Notes under the pieces: model-generated
What the model was told of the DNA's origin: nothing
Database searches by the model: none
The model's input: only the letters and a program-made list of their open reading frames with translations
Translations under genes and position numbers: made by a program
Part shown: positions 14,355 through 58,332 of the stretch, one piece after another
How positions within the stretch are numbered: position 1 is the first letter of the stretch
Layout of the letters: the number at the start of each line of letters is the position of its first letter
Source: Carcharhinus amblyrhynchos
Lineage: Eukaryota
Length of the DNA: 64,000 bases
Direction: 5' to 3'
Assembly (NCBI GenBank): GCA_965287045.1
Contig: OZ336871.1
Span: 106,888,001 to 106,952,000 of the forward strand

Positions 14355-14431
14355 TCCACGCATATCGCCCAGGCTACCTTCCAGGTTGACGCTTTCGACT
14401 CATCCTTCATTCTTGACGTTGAACTAAACCA
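14355..14431 (+). CDS. ADAM22: ADAM22 coding exon 3 (prodomain, 77 nt)
   Basis: tttttgcag acceptor, GTAAGT donor; STHIAQATFQVDAFDSSFILDVELN(H) vs human ADAM22 [26 protein letters not shown]; closer to ADAM22 than to ADAM11/ADAM23. Confidence 0.92.
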
Positions 14432-17964: not shown

Positions 17965-20900
17965 AACTAAAGAGGTCCTAAACTGGAAAAAGGCCAAATT
18001 TGAAGATATGAGAAAGGATCTAAAAAGCGTGAATTGGGTCAGGCTGTTCTCTGGCAGGGATGTGATTGGTAAGTGGGATGCCTTCAAAGAAGAAATTTTG
18101 AGAGTGCAGAGTCTGTATGTTCCTGTCAGGATTAAAGACAAAGTGAATAAGAATAAGGAAGCTTGGTTCTCGAGGGATATTGGAACTCTGATAAAGGAGA
18201 AGAGAGAGATGTATGACGTGTATAGGCAACAGGGAATAAGATGCTCGAGGAGTATAAAAAGTGCAAGAAACTACTTAAGAAAGAAATCAGGAGGGCTAAA
18301 AGAAGACATGAGGTTGCTTTGGCAATGAAGGCAAAGGATAATCCTAAGAGCTTCTACAGGTATGTTAAGAGCAAGAGGAGAGTAAGGGATAAAATTAGTC
18401 CTCTAGAAGATCAGAGTGGTCGACTATGTGTGGAACCAAAAGAAATGGGGGAAATATTAAGTAGGTTTTTTGCATCCGTATTTACTAAGGAAACTGGCAT
18501 GGAGTCTATGGAAATAAGGCAAACAAGTAGGGAGGTCATGGAACCTATACAGATTAAAGGGGAGGAGGTGTTTGCTGTCTTGAGGCAAATCAGAGTAGAT
18601 AAATCCCCAGGACCAGACAGGGTATTCCCTTGGACCTTGACGGAGACTAGTGTTGAAATTGCAGGGCCCTGGCAGATATATTTAAAATGTTGGTATGCAC
18701 GGGTGAAGTGCCAGATGATTGGAGGATTTTTGCTGATGACACCAAGATTGGGGGAACAGCAAATTGTGCGGAGGGTGTGGAGAGTCTGCAGAAGGATCTA
18801 GATAGGCTGGGCGAATGGGCCAGGAAATGGCAAATGGAATTTAATGTTGGCAAGTGTGAGGTGGTCCACTTTGGTAGGAAGAATGGTAGGAAGGACTATT
18901 ACTTACGGGGCGAAAAACTGCAGCAGGCGACGGTGCAGAGGGACCTCGGGGTCCTTGTGCATGAGTCGTAAAAACCCAGCCTGCAGGTGCAGCAGGTGGT
19001 CAGGAAGGCTAATGGGATGCTGGCCTTCATAGCGAGGGGGATTGAATATAAAAGTAGGGAGGTCTTGCTGCAGCTGTATAGGGCATTGGTGAGGCCGCAG
19101 CTGGAGTACTGTGTGCAGTTTTGGGCGCCGCACCTGCGCAAAGATATTTTGGCCTTGGAGGGAGTGCAGAGGAGGTTTACTAGGCTGATACCGGAGTTGA
19201 GGGGGTTGAGCTATGAGGAGAGGCTGAATAAACTGGGCTTGTACTCGTTAGAGTTTAGAAGAATGAGGGGAGATCTCATTGAGACGTATAAGATGATGAA
19301 TGGGATGGATAGGATAGAGGTGGAGAGACTCTTCCCGCTCAAAAAAGACAATAGGACTAGGGGGCACAGCCTCAAGATAAAAGGGGGGCGGTTTAGAACG
19401 GAGTTGAGGAGGAACTTCTTCACTCAAAGGGTGGTGAATCTCTGGAATTCTCTGCCCGTTGAAGTGGTGGAGGCTGCCTCGCTAAATATTTTTAAGACGC
19501 GGGTTGATGGGTTTTTGATAAGAGAGGGGATTAAGGGTTATGGGGAGAAAGCGGGAAAGTGGAACTGAGCAGCGACAGATCAGCCATGATCTTATTGAAT
19601 GGCGGGGCAGGCTCGAAGGGCTAGATGGCCTACTCCTGCTCCTATTTCTTATGTTCTTATGTTCTTATGTTGTTCCGTTATTTAAAAAAAGCCCAAAAAG
19701 TAATCCGGGAAGTTATAGGCCAATAAGTTTGATGTCAGTATTAGGTAAATTATTGGAAGGAGTATTTAGGGATAGGATCTACAAATACTTGGATAGACAG
19801 GGACTTATTAGGGAGAGTCAACATGACTTTGTGTCTGATAGGTCATGTTTAACCAATGTATTAGTTTTTTGAGGAGGTTACCAGGAAAGTGGATGAAGGG
19901 AAGACAGTGAATGTTGTGTACGTGGACTTCAGTAAGGCCTTTGACAAAGTCCCGCATGGGAGGTTAGTTAGGAAGATTCAGTCGCTAGGTATACATGGAG
20001 AGATAGTAAATTAGATTAGACATTGGCTTAATGGAAGAAGCCAGAGAGTGATAGTTGAGGAATGCTTCTCTGAGTGGAGGCCTGTGACTACTGGTGTGCT
20101 GGGCCCATTGTTGTTTGTCATCTATATCAATGATCTGGATGATAATGTAGTAAACTGGGTCAGCAAATCTGCTGATGATACAAAGATTGGAGGTGTAGTG
20201 GACAGTCAGGAAGGTTTTCAAAGCTTGCAGAGGGATTTGGACCAACTAGAAAAATGGGCTGAAAAATGGCAGATGGAATTCAATGTAGACAAGTGTGAGG
20301 TATTGCACTTTAGAAGGACAAACCAAGGTAGAACATACATGGTAAATGGTAGGACACTGAAGAGTGCAGTAGAACAGAGGGATCTGGGAATACAGATGCA
20401 TAATTCCCTAAATGTGGCATCACAGATAAATTGGGTCCTAAAGAGTGCTTTTGGTACATTGGCCTTTATAAATCAAAATATTGACTATAAGAGTTGGAAT
20501 GTTATGGTGAGGTTGTATAAGACATTGGTGAGGCCTAATTTAGAGTATTGTGTGCAGTTTTGATCACGTAATTACAGGAAGGATATTAATAAGGTTGAAA
20601 GAGTGCAGAGAAGGTTCACAAACATGTTGCCGGGACTTGAGAAACTGAGTTACAGAGAAAGGTTGAATAGGTTAGGACTTTATTCCCTGGAGCGTAGAAG
20701 AATGAGGGAGATTTGATAGAGGTGTATAAAATTATGATGGGTATAGATAGAGTGAATGCAAGCAGGCTTTTTCCACTGAGGCTAGGGGAGAAGAAAACTG
20801 GAGGACATGGATTAAGGGTGAAGGGGGAAAAGTTTAAAGGGAATATTGGGGGGGGGGGGGCCGTCTTCAAACAGAGAGTGGTGGGAGTGTGGAATGAGCT

Positions 20901-25210: not shown

Positions 25211-25709
25211 TTCATGTTTCAGTCGTTTGGATATAAAGGCCAGCGTTCCAGCATCCTTCTGAATTGTTTCCTTTACCTGTTCATGACTCTCATCTTCCAT
25301 GTGATGTTTTTCTTTCTCCTTCTCTGGGGATAACTCTCGAACATCTTGCTAGTAACATTAACTCCTGTCTCCACATTTAGCATTTGTGCATTCAAGGATT
25401 TCTAAGGTTGGGTACTAGCTTTAGATCTACCAAGACCATATCGTGGTGCATTGCTGTGAACTGAAGCTTTGTTGTTTCTTCTACCTGTGCATGCTGGTTG
25501 GATATGGCTGACTGTCCCACAGCATATCACTTTGACTGGAGATGGGAACATTTAGATAGTTGGCAGCCACCATGGAAACAGTAACATCAAGACTGAATTC
25601 ATTCTGAGACTGAATTTGACTGCTGGGGTCTGGATTTTGTTGAAACCTGGTGATTCTTCCCTGCAAGCTCAGAAAAAGAACTTCCTCGCAATTGTCAGCT
25701 ATCACCACA

Positions 25710-26695
25710 AGACAAGGGCGTATATAGTGAATGGCAGGACACTGGGAAGCTCAGAGGAACAGAGGGATCTTGGGGTCCTTATTCACAGATCCCTGAAGTT
25801 GGCAGAGCAGGTAAATAGGATAAAAGCAAAATACTGCAAATGCTGCAATCAGAAACAAAAACAAAGAATGTTGGAAAAGCTCAGCAGGTCTGACAGCATC
25901 TATGGAGAGCAAATAGAGCCAACATTTTGAGTCTGAATGACTCTTCATCAGAGCTGACAAAGGGTCATCCAGACTTGAAACATTGGCTCTATTCTCTCTT
26001 CACAGTTGCTATCGGCACTGTTGAGATTTTCCAGCATTTTCTGAGGTGTATAGAATAGTTAAGAGGCATATAGGAAACTTGCTTTCAGCAGTTGTGGCAG
26101 AGAGTGTCAGAGCAAGAAGGGAATGTTGGAGTTGTACACAACATTGCTTAGGCCAGCATTGTGTGCAGTCCTGGTCACCTCACTGTAGGAAGGATATAAT
26201 AGCACTAGAGGTACAGAGGAGGTCTGCCAGGAGGTTGCCTGGGATGGCACATTCGTGCTGTTAGGAGAGACTAGATAGGCTTAGATTGTTTTCTTTTGAG
26301 CAGAGAAGGTTGAGGGGGAACGTGATTGAGGTGAATAAGATTACGAGGGGCATGAATAGGGTGAGTAGGGAGCAGTTGTTCCATGTGGTTGAGGGGTCAA
26401 TCATGAGGGGGCATTCTTCTGGGTTAAGAAAGAGGAGATTCAGAAGGGATTTGAGAAAAAATTCTTTTTCCTCAGTGGCGGTGGGAATCTGGAATGCAGT
26501 GCCTGAGAAGGTAGTGAAGGCCAGAAACTTTGCAACCGTTAAAAAATATTTGGATGAGCACTTGAAATAGCTTAACATTCAAGGATATGAAACAAATGCA
26601 GGAAAATGGGATTAGTGTACCTTTAGTGGTAGTTATTCTGTGTGCAGACTTCATGGGCTGCAGGGCCTTTTCTGCAGTGTATGACTCTTAAGACT
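25710..26695 (+). mobile_element. CR1 3' fragment containing a palindromic insertion
   Basis: EQRDLGVLIH, FSFEQRRLRG, VGIWNAVP motifs. Confidence 0.8.
25821..26045. mobile_element. Palindromic Penelope-like element with two minimal hammerhead-type cores
   Basis: ~90-bp imperfect inverted arms centred ~25952; minus strand CUGAUGA-a-gaguc-auuca-gacuc-AAAA; plus strand CUGACAA-a-ggguc-aucca-gacuu-GAAAC. Confidence 0.65.
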
Positions 26696-30355: not shown

Positions 30356-32896
30356 GGAGAGACCTCTGACTTGGCCCCTTCATCCTCAGCATGATCCCTC
30401 TTAACCCTCATCTCCCTTGAAGGATGCCCTCCCACCCTTGCACGTGGCCGGTGGCTACTTTATCCTTGTGTACCCTGGCACTAAGTGGAGAAGAGTACTC
30501 ACTGCCTTCCTCCCACTTGGAGTCCATTGCGCCTGGTCTATGTTTTTGAAGTGCAGTAATAATTGGCATCTGCATGACATCTTGCTGGTGGGCGGGAAGA
30601 TTCAGTGAGGCCGGGACACCTGCGTTTAACCTCACTGATGACATTCAAATCAAGTTCTCACCCTTTCTGGGCGTGAACCTAATTACACCAATAGGAAGGG
30701 TTCAAGGAAATTGCATTCAGAGTTCCCACCAGCAAAAATCCTGCTTTTCTCGGCAGACTTAGCCCTAATTGGATTTGCTCCCATGGCAAATGGGCCCAGA
30801 AAATCGCGGCCCTACTAAAGTTAAAAATTCCACCCTCTATTTTTATTTTAAATAAATTTATTTTAGGCATGCAAGGCTCTCTATTGTAGCAATATAGTAT
30901 GGGTGCTGGTATCTGAGAAGCATTATTACAGCACATTAAAGCTTTATTTCATGGTTGGGAGCCACAACCAATCCTCTTGATCCCCACCCCCACGAGCATT
31001 TCTGTCCCTGAACATCTGCAGTGTGTTTTTTTGTTTGAATATCTGCTAGTTTTAAATGATTATTCATCAAGACAGTAAGCATTGTTTGTTGACAGCTTGA
31101 TAAAGCTTTTTGGGAGAGCAAATCTATGAGATTCTTCCTGCTGACTTAGTTCTTCACTAAGTGCATTGTCAACCTTCATACATTTTTAAAATTCTTAATT
31201 AGCAAATATTGCTTATTTGATCAGACATAAATAGCCCCAACCAATGCAAGAGTTTATTGAAGATGAATCCCTCATTGCTGCAACTGTACTGCAATGGATA
31301 ATTCAGCAGATATGGTCTAACGCTTTACAACCTTTTAAGTGTCAAGATTTGACAACGTATTAGATCCTGAGGGGCTTGATTGTGTAGATGCTGAGATGAT
31401 ATTTCTCCTCATCTGGGAATCTAGAATTGGGGAGCACAGTTTAAAAAATAGAGGATCTCCCATTTAAAAAGTGGATGAGAAGAAATTTCTGCTCTTAGAG
31501 ACTTATTAGTGTTTGGAATTCATTTTCCTGTGAACTGCTCATGGTACAGAGGCTGTGATGTGAATCTTGCCAATAGGGGGACGGGTGGAGTATCAACTCA
31601 TCTGTGAGGCCGGCTGCTGAGCTCCAGGGGAGTGCCACTGTGCAGGTGCCCCGATCTCCCAGTGTACTGTGTACACAGTGTACACATTATACTGGGAGAT
31701 CTGTCATCCCCCTCCACACCCCACTGATCGCCACCCCAACTATTTGTCAGTGTGGATCTCGAGCAGCGAGAGAACTAAGGTAAATGAGCCCAGACAATTG
31801 CATCCCAGACTCATTAATGATACGTAAACATTAATATTTAAATCAGCCTTGCGTCCTTTCCATTGCAAAGTCAATTTCATCGGCACAGTAGGACCAGCAA
31901 GGTTGTGAGGGGCAAGAAATCGGGCATGGACCCGGTTTTTTGCCTCTTGTCCTATTTAACTGGCTCACTGATCAACTGGCGTGGCAAGCTGGTAAGATCT
32001 TGCCCATTGTGTTCAAATGACATTCATGAACTTACAAAATTGTTTCTTTTGTTAAACTTAGCAATTAACATTAGCAGTTAATAGCTAACCTCCAGCCCGC
32101 TGTTACAAATGATCAGCGGGTAAAGATTGGTTTAGGCCAGGAGCCTGAACCAAGCTCAGTGAAATGACAACCTATTGATTTCAACTGGAAAGAAAATCAG
32201 CTGCAGCATGCAACTGCTGCCAAATTGCTATGAACACAATTATGCACGACTGGCAAAAAATTAACTCTACCCCAAAATTTGGAAGCCTCAATAGTATGAG
32301 CCCATGTAGGCTGGCCTTTGCAAGACTCTTGGAAAATGTAAACTGTGAAGCAGGATTGGCTTTGAAGAAATTCCAGACCAGTCATTTGTTTTGGCTCCTC
32401 TGACCTTGACAATCTGCCTTAACCCAGTCAACATCCCCCCTCCCCACCCCCCACATACCCCCATCCCCACCCCCACCCATCCAAGCAAAACAACTAATGA
32501 CTAATGATTATTAACAGTACCACACTACAAAAAAAACACTCAGAAGCTAGCTTCTAATTGACTTCAAAATTCACTTTGACACCAACTCACTGAGCATACG
32601 TTTCTCCCACTTTCTCCAAAGCATTCTGCATTCATTACTCAGGTTTCCTGTCCTTCTCTGGGGAGCCAACACATTCAGCCAGAAGCAGCACCCGAACAGG
32701 GACTTGGCTCATGGACTCTCAAAGTTTGATTTCCCTGCTGACTGATCTACCTGGGCCTTAAAACGCACCTTGACTGCCAGGGTAACTATTATACAACCTC
32801 TGAGCTCCCCATTAAGGAATTGAACCCAGGAAAAGCCCTGATCAGGCATGGTTGCACCTTAGTGGTTAAACATTCTAACCATGCTCCTAACTGTAA

Positions 32897-33010
32897 GCAA
32901 TGATGCAGGTGCTGGAATATTTAAATAAAGACAGGAAATGCTGCATATCAGATGGTATCTGTGGTGAGGAAAACAATGTGACATTTCAGGTCTGTTGAAA
33001 GCTTTAGGTA
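32897..33010. mobile_element. Older half-copy of the 25821 Penelope-like family
   Basis: gatgcaggtgctggaat...gacaggaaatgctg...gtgacatttcaggtc parallels the left arm at 25830-25935. Confidence 0.5.
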
Positions 33011-56544: not shown

Positions 56545-58332
56545 TATTAGGCAGAAGAAAAGGCTGAACAGTTTTCCACCTTTGCTATCTCAGACACATC
56601 TTCAGCATCTCTTGACAGGACAAGCTGACCAACTCAGAGGTGCTATTTGCATTACCTTATACCTATTGCAAAACCACTGATGTCTGTAATGGCTCAGTCA
56701 CTCTAATCAGATGGATGATGCCTGTATACCCAAAAACCTTCTGTGTGGTGAGCTGGCCACTGGATCGTAACACCCACATATCTTTTCCAAGGATATTTGC
56801 AAAGCAAGACATGAAAATGGCAAATATTGACACTGAACGCTGGTAGACAGTTGCAGCACGGTTTCATTAAAGGGAAGTCGTGTCTGACAAATTTACTGGA
56901 GTTCTATGAGGATGTGTCTAGGGCGGTGGATAGAGGAGATCCGGTGGATGTGGTCTTTCTAGATTTTCAGAAGGCGTTTGACAAAGTGCCTCACAAGAGG
57001 TTATTGCAGAAGGTCGAGGGACATGGAGTTGGGGGTAGGGTGTTAGCGTGGATAGAGGATTGGTTGTCAAATAGGAGGCAGAGAGTGGGGGTCAACGGGT
57101 GCTATTCGGATTGGCGGATGGTGACTAGTGGAGTGCCCCAGGGGTCGGTGCTGGGGCCTCAGCTTTTTACCATTTATATAGATGATCTGGAGGAGGGAAC
57201 CGAGTGTAGAGTGTCGAAATTTGCTGATGACACCAAGATTGGGGGAATGGCAAATTGTGCGGAGGGTGTGGAGAGTCTACAGAAGGATCTAGATAGGCTG
57301 GGCGAATGGGCCAGGAAATGGCAAATGGAATTTAATGTTGGCAAGTGTGAGGTGGTCCACTTTGGTAGGAAGAATGGTAGGAAGGACTATTACTTACGGG
57401 GCGAAAAACTGCAGCAGGCGACGGTGCAGAGGGACCTCAGGGTCCTTGTGCATGAGTCGCAAAAACCCAGCTTGCAGGTGCAGCAGGTGGTCAGGAAGGC
57501 GAATGGGATGCTGGCCTTCATAGCGAAGGGGATTGAATATAAAAGTAGGGAGGTCTTGCTGCAGCTGTATAGGGCATTGGTGAGGCCGCAACTGGAGTAC
57601 TGTGTGCATTTTTGGGCGCCGCACCTGCGCAAAGATATTTTGGCCTTGGAGGGAGTGCAGAGGAGGTTTACTAGGCTGATACCGGAGTTGAGGGGGTTGA
57701 GCTATGAGGAGAGGCTGAATAAACTGGGCTTGTACTCATTAGAGTTTAGAAGAATGAGAGGAGATCTCATTGAGACGTATAAGATGATGAATGGGATGGA
57801 TAGGATAGAGGTGGAAAGACTCTTCCCGCTCAAAAAAGACAATAGGACTAGGGGGCACAGCCTCAAGATAAAAGGGGGGCGGTTTAGAACGGAGTTGAGG
57901 AGGAACTTCTTCACTCAAAGGGTGGTGAATCTCTGGAATTCTCTGCCCGTTGAAGTGGTGGAGGCTGCCTCGCTAAATATTTTTAAGACGCGGGTTGATG
58001 GGTTTTTGATAGGAGAGGGGATTAAGGGTTATGGGGAGAGGGCGGGAAAGTGGAACTGAGTAGCGACAGATCAGCCATGATCTTATTGAATGGCGGGGCA
58101 GGCTCGAAGGGCTGGATGGCCTACTCCTGCTCCTATTTCTTATGTTCTTATGTTCTTATTTCCCTGGTGTGGAAAAATTGAGTGGAAAAGGCATATTTGG
58201 CTGAGATGAGGACTTAGAGAAAACAAAGGCAAGTGACTTGTGCACCTTCTCAACCCACTGTCTTCCTGCAGGAGATGCAACAGAAACTGCCATGTCAGGG
58301 CTAAGCTCCTAAATCACACCAGATGATGTTTA
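56545..58332 (+). mobile_element. RTE (BovB-like) LINE 3' fragment split by a young CR1
   Basis: QDKLTNSEVL...WLSH..MDD..IPKNLL.GELATG...DICKQDMK; C-terminal CRRCNRNCH...NHTR knuckle after 58260. Confidence 0.75.
56854..58159 (+). mobile_element. Young 5'-truncated CR1, uninterrupted RT C-terminal ORF
   Basis: ORF 56827-58059 QHGF...GVPQGSVLGP...FADDTK with no stops; (ttcttatg)n tail. Confidence 0.95.

Follow-up and report, generated by a model that had tools for sequence, protein, structure and literature searches.

Head-to-head inverted copies of the pseudo-LTR (pLTR) with a palindromic junction, a tail on one side only, and a target-site duplication (TSD) have already been published for Penelope-like elements (PLEs) (PMC3846280; PMC8557442), whereas the formation of the inverted ends is described as undefined (PMC8557442). 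The tail itself is described in three papers (PMC8557442; PMC3846280; PMC11167929). The closest described elements are Pen2a_Av and its relatives (PMC3846280; scheme in the legend to Fig. 2 of PMC8557442), which combine a head-to-head inverted pLTR and a palindromic junction with a tail of 30-40 nt on one arm, a TSD, and a TATA-like box in the pLTR (PMC3846280). The minimal hammerhead ribozymes of metazoan PLEs (Cervera and de la Pena 2014, PMC4209133) are characterized by CUGANGA, an extra base before stem II, a G10.1-C11.1 pair, a palindromic 15.2-16.2 segment (ACGU), a short stem I, and the lack of helix III. The palindromic ACGU allows hammerhead dimers, and dual minimal hammerheads lying close together on opposite strands were already noted in 2014 (PMC4209133). 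In the Poseidon element of Anolis (PAc; Frangieh et al. 2024, PMC11167929), the protein cuts and extends both target strands in vitro, and two internal reverse transcription starts bracket the tail; hammerhead cleavage is dispensable, uncut RNA is the main template, and no reads end at the cut site. Non-LTR retrozymes (PMC7229834; bioRxiv 10.64898/2026.07.22.740005) are non-coding, carry a type-I hammerhead, are related to PLEs, and include a case in a cartilaginous fish.

We analyzed a 64,000-nt stretch of the Carcharhinus amblyrhynchos genome, hereafter the window, in which a palindrome with two hammerhead cores shares these features. The locus differs from Pen2a_Av in that its arms are cut to the last 90-135 nt of the element and contain no ORF, and in that the TSD is 12-14 nt rather than 8-10 nt in this family, which is present in thousands of copies and so permits end statistics. 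No shark family appears in the available text or searchable supplements of the 2014 survey (PMC4209133), and the window copy, unlike the hammerheads described there, is mutated at both G8 and G12. PAc probably belongs to a different clade, the shark parent having a CxxC linker between the reverse transcriptase (RT) and the endonuclease (EN), and the available text of the PAc paper (PMC11167929) gives no explanation of inverted ends. Retrozymes are head-to-tail tandems with at least two cores per strand (bioRxiv 10.64898/2026.07.22.740005), whereas the window palindrome is head-to-head with one core per strand. Our literature search found no paper on palindromic PLE stubs in sharks or on PLE twin priming; Repbase and Dfam lay outside that search and may hold the family. 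Two observations are new: the 5' ends of the arms form a wall 30 nt downstream of a TATA box (41/89) and not at the ribozyme cut site, and in 28 of 54 pairs each arm carries sequence missing from its partner.

The palindrome, its insertion site, and its parent element

The coordinates of the features are listed in Table 1. The imperfect palindrome of about 185 nt, first recognized by inspection, was recovered as a predicted hairpin at approximately 25861-26044, with folding energies of -101.7 and -100.7 kcal/mol on the two strands (z scores of -10.9 and -11.05). None of 200 shuffled sequences was equally stable on either strand, and the arms are complementary at 76% over 172 nt. The TSD of the window copy is decayed, its score of 6.5 not being significant alone (a score of 6 is reached by 14.6% of controls); in the one informative locus, a paralogue of the host repeat carries the 14-mer once. 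We take this host repeat to be a CR1-like LINE. Contigs from sequencing runs under two organism labels, one of which may be the window's own species, span both element-flank junctions with few differences, indicating that the insertion is real and common to at least one other organism label. An assembly artefact was rejected, since contigs of other runs cross both junctions. No empty orthologous site was found among the contig pieces listed. The locus is likely an ordinary dead transposon fragment, old as an insertion and inert.

Table 1. Features of the palindromic insertion and its surroundings in the window (numbering of the arms relative to +1 of the PLE end).
Feature	Position	Strand	Remarks
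77-nt exon, ADAM-like prodomain piece	14355..14431	+	AG/GT ends; from sequence
Older interspersed repeat hosting the insertion	25707..26500 (approximate)	+	Repeat family D5; high flanking contig depth; empty-site paralogue
TSD, left copy	25809..25822	+	14 bp; last 2 nt common to element end
Long arm, +1..+135 of PLE pLTR end	25821..25955	-	88.9% identical to consensus end of EN-bearing PLE family; predicted RNA 5' end at 25955
Unpaired tail of ~33 nt, +103..+135	25821..25853	-	One arm only; bimodal 3' ends near +101 and +135
Splice-acceptor-like sites	25845-25915	-	Arm +44..+60, +91..+107
Minimal hammerhead core, minus arm	25921..25951	-	CUGAUGA, extra A, stem II GAGUC/GACUC, AAAAUGUU
Head-to-head junction	25954..25955	.	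2-nt overlap (CT) inside self-complementary AGCT at +1..+4
Short arm, +5..+94 of same PLE end, no tail	25954..26043	+	88.9% identical to consensus
Minimal hammerhead core, plus arm	25954..25984	+	CUGACAA, stem II GGGUC/GACUU, GAAACAUU
Splice-acceptor-like sites	26000-26043	+	Arm +44..+60, +91..+107
TSD, right copy	26044..26057	+	Matches left copy at 11/14
Older, more diverged solo arm, about +21..+132	32895..32994	-	No CUGANGA box; consensus search

The original prediction placed the palindrome in an ADAM22 intron. Upstream of it lies an exon that we take to encode an ADAM22/23/11-type prodomain piece, although neither Pfam nor PDB searches recognized its 29-aa product. A disintegrin exon follows on the same strand about 195 kb downstream; its best PDB match is ADAM22 (E 4.4e-7), in a ranking that cannot separate ADAM22 from ADAM11/23 if the latter are not deposited. 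On the sequence of these two exons, the element likely lies downstream of the first in an intron of an ADAM22-like gene. The half-copy suspected near 32900 was recovered by a consensus search with a score of 76.5, compared with 42.5 for the next-best background tile; blastn with the window copy did not detect it, and the consensus search revealed no inverted partner. Elsewhere in the window, two LINE-like repeat copies at 18729-19660 and 57220-58151 are 98-99% identical and form a recent insertion pair. A tRNA-derived SINE-like repeat, presumably of HE1 type, is present in numerous copies on both strands at many sites (families D1-D9).

A search of the genome for GIY-YIG domains returned 68 matches, of which 15 loci were examined. 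At one of them (L041), the GIY-YIG domain (Pfam E 1.4e-5) is followed on the same strand by a pyrimidine-rich 3' UTR and then by the arm, which terminates 29 of 29 relatives of this locus; its end falls at either of two positions separated by about 33 nt. These relatives form a sister subfamily with a few diagnostic differences from that of the window. The exact subfamily of the window also has EN-bearing copies; the arm is present in 27 of 29 of them (GIY-YIG motif seen in translation), and their consensus end matches the consensus arm of the palindrome. Longer copies contain RT motifs and the CxxC linker before the EN. The Penelope-like origin proposed from the hammerhead was thus borne out, and an element with RT, GIY-YIG, and the same end does exist in such long copies, in which RT and EN were assigned from broken frames and not from one intact ORF. 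Pfam RVT_1 was recognized weakly, in two of nine degenerate fragments (best E 0.0033, both below the cut-off); one fragment shares 53% identity with a shark protein that carries the PF00078 annotation, the closest named proteins are from rays and a bamboo shark, and a PDB search with an RT fragment gave nothing useful. The CxxC linker suggests the Neptune/Nematis type, for which a Zn-finger-like CxxC linker between RT and EN is described (PMC8557442). We found no full-length parent in which an ORF follows a 5' pLTR; downstream sequence is not shared among 163 tail-bearing arms, and none of the examined loci contained a partial-tandem pLTR-ORF-pLTR copy.

Several other copies and features were observed. 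A 2.9-kb copy (L176:4023-6929) with RT, EN, and a tailed arm is bordered at its 5' end by a short inverted arm and represents the architecture of the window palindrome at a larger scale. At L040:987-2159, a different PLE family is inserted inside one arm of the window family, the insertion having duplicated about 14 nt. Another GIY-YIG PLE family (L043:6-2138, L040:2015-2050) ends in a hammerhead-like sequence of its own (CUGAUGA...GAAAGCU) and has an inverted 5' copy of 750 nt, and a third, more diverged one occupies loci L031-L039. The parent arm is predicted to form a long stem-loop at +57 to +127, the 3' half of which holds both end sites; a stem-loop at the region of the RT start is likewise reported for the Anolis element (PMC11167929). 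The arm also contains two splice-acceptor-like sites, each a pyrimidine tract with CAG, and an ATG with a frame open through the tail follows the first. Among the ray proteins that match the parent RT, several carry annotations as host-gene isoforms, and exonisation of PLE pieces is hinted at by these sequences.

Hammerhead cores

Minimal hammerhead cores had been recognized on both arms, and their boxes were located as described, CTGATGA on the minus arm (25951-25945) and CTGACAA on the plus arm (25954-25960); stem II is followed by AAAA on the minus arm and by GAAAC on the plus arm. In the consensus of 29 top-scoring copies, the core consists of CUGACGA, an extra A, GGGUC/GACUC, GAAAC, and GUU, and the same sequence is the majority in the 27 EN-bearing copies, in agreement with the ancestral core that had been deduced from the two arms. 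The 3' strand of this core pairs with AGCU directly upstream, giving stem I AGCU/GGCU with the triplet GUU. The family consensus thereby contains all elements of a minimal type-I hammerhead: CUGANGA, the extra base, stem II with G10.1-C11.1, GAAA, an NUH cleavage site (GUU), and stem I.

Both defects originally noted in the window copy are G>A changes at CpG sites, namely G8A in the plus core (25959) and G12A in the minus core (25928). Two further CpG changes were found, G16.2A in the plus arm (25982) and C15.2U in the minus arm, the intact form of which is predicted to be cut after 25921. In hammerhead catalysis, G12 acts as general base and the general acid is provided by G8 (PMC6155905), and the mutation G8C abolishes cleavage of a PLE hammerhead (PMC11167929). 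The window copy does not retain intact G8 and G12 in an accessible fold, which bears out the expectation that it is inactive. In the predicted folds, the penalty for opening the core is 21.6 kcal/mol on the plus strand and 27.0 kcal/mol on the minus strand, and the closing pair of stem II forms with a probability of about 1e-13 on either strand; the unmutated model palindrome is also predicted to bury the core. Because each strand carries one sense core, the head-to-head layout gives no dimer in cis.

Across 49 arms covering the box, the identity of core bases was 0.61 at G8, 0.53 at G12, and 0.61 at the non-catalytic N7, and all 11 core bases were retained in 9 of the 49. Since G8 and G12 were lost as often as N7, they appear to decay like non-catalytic CpG, with no sign of selection for cleavage after insertion. 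An Rfam scan of the whole window gave 11 matches at E<=10 with no hammerhead model among them, and no hammerhead model matched the window copy at the gathering level. A miRNA precursor was rejected; the Rfam match to MIR5048 was weak (32.6 bits, with a cut-off of 160).

Arm ends and target-site duplications

A similarity search with the window copy (4577 first-look candidates, 40 scored) selects symmetric look-alikes; samples drawn by exact motif are independent of symmetry. For sample 1, 4635 genomic matches to a 23-mer were available and the first 70 were taken; once a segmental duplicate and a second arm had been dropped, the remaining 68 comprised 29 adjacent inverted pairs, 7 long copies, and 32 other short copies. 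Sample 2 comprised 90 of 2706 matches to a 34-mer further downstream, namely 30 plus 60 of the next 70 (skipping 3 already sampled, 4 near another match, and the last 3); one second arm was dropped, leaving 89, including 31 adjacent pairs. A few elements were common to both samples, and removal of one duplicate pair on pooling gave 59 adjacent pairs. Both samples were taken from the first part of one contig by an exact match of 23 or 34 nt and so favor younger copies. The tail was found on exactly one arm in 54 of the pooled pairs, on both arms in none, and on neither in 5. TSD scores of at least 7.5 were reached by 35 of 58 elements, compared with 1.8% of 3000 mismatched flank pairs, and TSD lengths were 8-16 nt, mostly 12-14 nt.

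Of the bases following the tail in 163 tail-bearing arms, positions +136 to +141 were biased (T 110, C 79, T 81, T 82, A 81, A/G 103). This bias in host DNA or TSD may reflect either a target preference or priming aided by homology past +135.

In long copies, TATAAAT starts 30 nt before +1 (AGCTCTGA). Among the 89 arms of sample 2, 41 started at -3 to +5, 2 at -24 to -4, 10 further upstream, and 36 at +6 to +62, and the 5' wall was also seen in 31 of 61 short copies of sample 1. Since TATAAAT sits 30 nt upstream of the wall formed by the arm 5' ends, +1 is probably the transcription start. No pile-up was detected at the predicted cut (+36), with 4 of 89 starts at +33 to +41 and none at 35-37; the absence of arm ends where hammerhead cleavage would put them suggests that the template RNA had escaped cleavage by its ribozyme, as in the Anolis element (PMC11167929). 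Against the reading of +1 as the transcription start, the promoter of Penelope in D. virilis is reported to be internal and TATA-less (PMC2377424), which shows the type of promoter to differ among PLEs. Counted by exact match across the genome, 3202 arms reach +1, and 318 of these continue into the parent's upstream bases; reversed patterns gave no match, and each such count is to be read with the loss of roughly half of the matches to decay for 5 extra bases. Both solo arms and long RT/EN copies sharing this end occur commonly.

Formation of the inverted ends

In L1 twin priming, the second target strand primes internally on the RNA, and the resulting inverted 5' piece is joined by microhomology; L1 inversions are non-overlapping and start at the poly(A). 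In the shark family, by contrast, both starts appear to be fixed internal sites, and the arms usually overlap. We consider it highly probable that the window palindrome is a de novo inverted-end product of the insertion of an EN-bearing PLE and, granted this origin, we lean towards twin priming as the way it was made. The same 135-nt end closes the long copies with RT motifs, the CxxC linker, and GIY-YIG. The TATA box lies within the 3' UTR of the parent, and transcription beginning 30 nt beyond it, at +1 (AGCUCUGA), would place the hammerhead first in the RNA. As suggested by in vitro work on another PLE, the protein would cut both target strands, here with a stagger of about 12-14 nt, and reverse transcription would initiate at two internal RNA sites, here near +101 and +135. 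One target strand would prime at each site, and both cDNAs would extend toward the 5' end of the RNA until they halt there or short of it; microhomology of 0-8 nt or a few filler nucleotides would then join them. With two cDNAs started at two sites and joined in this way, the result would be an inverted repeat carrying a one-sided tail. The product in the window has no TATA box and no ORF, each of its cores lacks a catalytic G, and its hairpin is predicted to bury both. It would be a case in which both arms got to the RNA start (+1 and +5).

The arm extents of the 54 one-tail pairs bear on this mechanism. In 28 pairs, the tail arm failed by more than 10 nt to reach the point at which its partner starts; it came within 10 nt of that point in 18 and was longer in 8. 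The most extreme pairs meet at about +98 to +101 with almost no overlap, as at one locus where +100 to +135 is joined to +1 to +101 (L265). The 28 pairs favor priming from both cut strands, because each arm holds sequence that the other lacks, and twin priming would explain all three classes. Later deletions in unstable palindromes could also make junctions uneven and mimic it.

The main alternative retains the same origin but has the mirror half made by fold-back of the cDNA or by self-priming on antisense RNA, as already proposed by Arkhipova et al. 2013 (PMC3846280), with central deletions accounting for uneven junctions. Positions +1 to +4 (AGCT) are self-complementary, and exact matching found 148 perfect palindromic junctions genome-wide (some counted from both arms) and, as a separate count, 51 junctions of the type seen in the window copy, that copy included. 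Fold-back would fit the 26 of 54 pairs made up of the 18 near-equal ones and the 8 with a longer tail arm; the variable loop base at +21 was usually common to both arms (9/11), as any one-template model predicts. In the other 28 pairs, however, the tail arm is too short to have templated its partner, the nearly non-overlapping pairs meet at the second end site, and fold-back alone leaves the fixed +101 end of the second arm unexplained. We regard this alternative as possible but less likely.

The original prediction of a non-autonomous palindromic element presenting a hammerhead whichever strand is transcribed, taken as a family that is copied as a unit, is very improbable. In its favor, the consensus core qualifies as a minimal hammerhead with GUU as the cleavage triplet, and the search with the window copy yields many near-symmetric look-alikes. 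That search selects for them, however, and in the unselected samples 53 of the 54 one-tail pairs had distinct junctions; CUGA was kept on both arms in 3 of 29 pairs of sample 1 and 4 of 31 pairs of sample 2 (one element being in both samples). Because nearly all junctions differ and exact palindromic junctions are a minority, we conclude from the sequences that each insertion event creates its palindrome afresh. The TATA box is missing from short copies, and the predicted burial of the core, the lack of a cis dimer, and the neutral decay of G8 and G12 also argue against a two-way ribozyme element.

A domesticated hairpin or ribozyme acting on the ADAM22-like pre-mRNA (by cleavage, as an editing substrate, or on splicing) is scarcely credible: the element is intronic on the transcribed strand, would form a long double-stranded stem, and is common to at least one other organism label, and domesticated intronic hammerheads exist in amniotes (PMC6155905), but both arms are 11% from the consensus, no closer than typical copies, they have drifted to 76% complementarity, and the sense core carries G8A and G16.2A. 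A MITE or DNA transposon was rejected by the lack of a fixed terminal inverted repeat pair, the RT/EN parent, and the variable TSD, and a tandem retrozyme by the head-to-head units with one core per strand.

Returning to twin priming, the stubs may be the Penelope counterpart of strong-stop DNA and a genome-wide readout of PLE integration. A protein dimer would prime both target strands from two fixed positions within a capped RNA that is uncut and has the hammerhead first, and every inverted pLTR with a one-sided tail would come from twin priming and not from antisense self-priming; we give this general form of the proposal an even chance. The family offers thousands of datable mini-insertions, whose end and junction statistics separate twin priming from self-priming, and the end statistics speak for a template left intact by its ribozyme. 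In genome annotation, palindromes of this kind should be classed as insertion products of PLEs and not as MITEs, miRNA hairpins, or new ribozyme elements. The locus is mainly useful as a record of how PLEs likely copy themselves.
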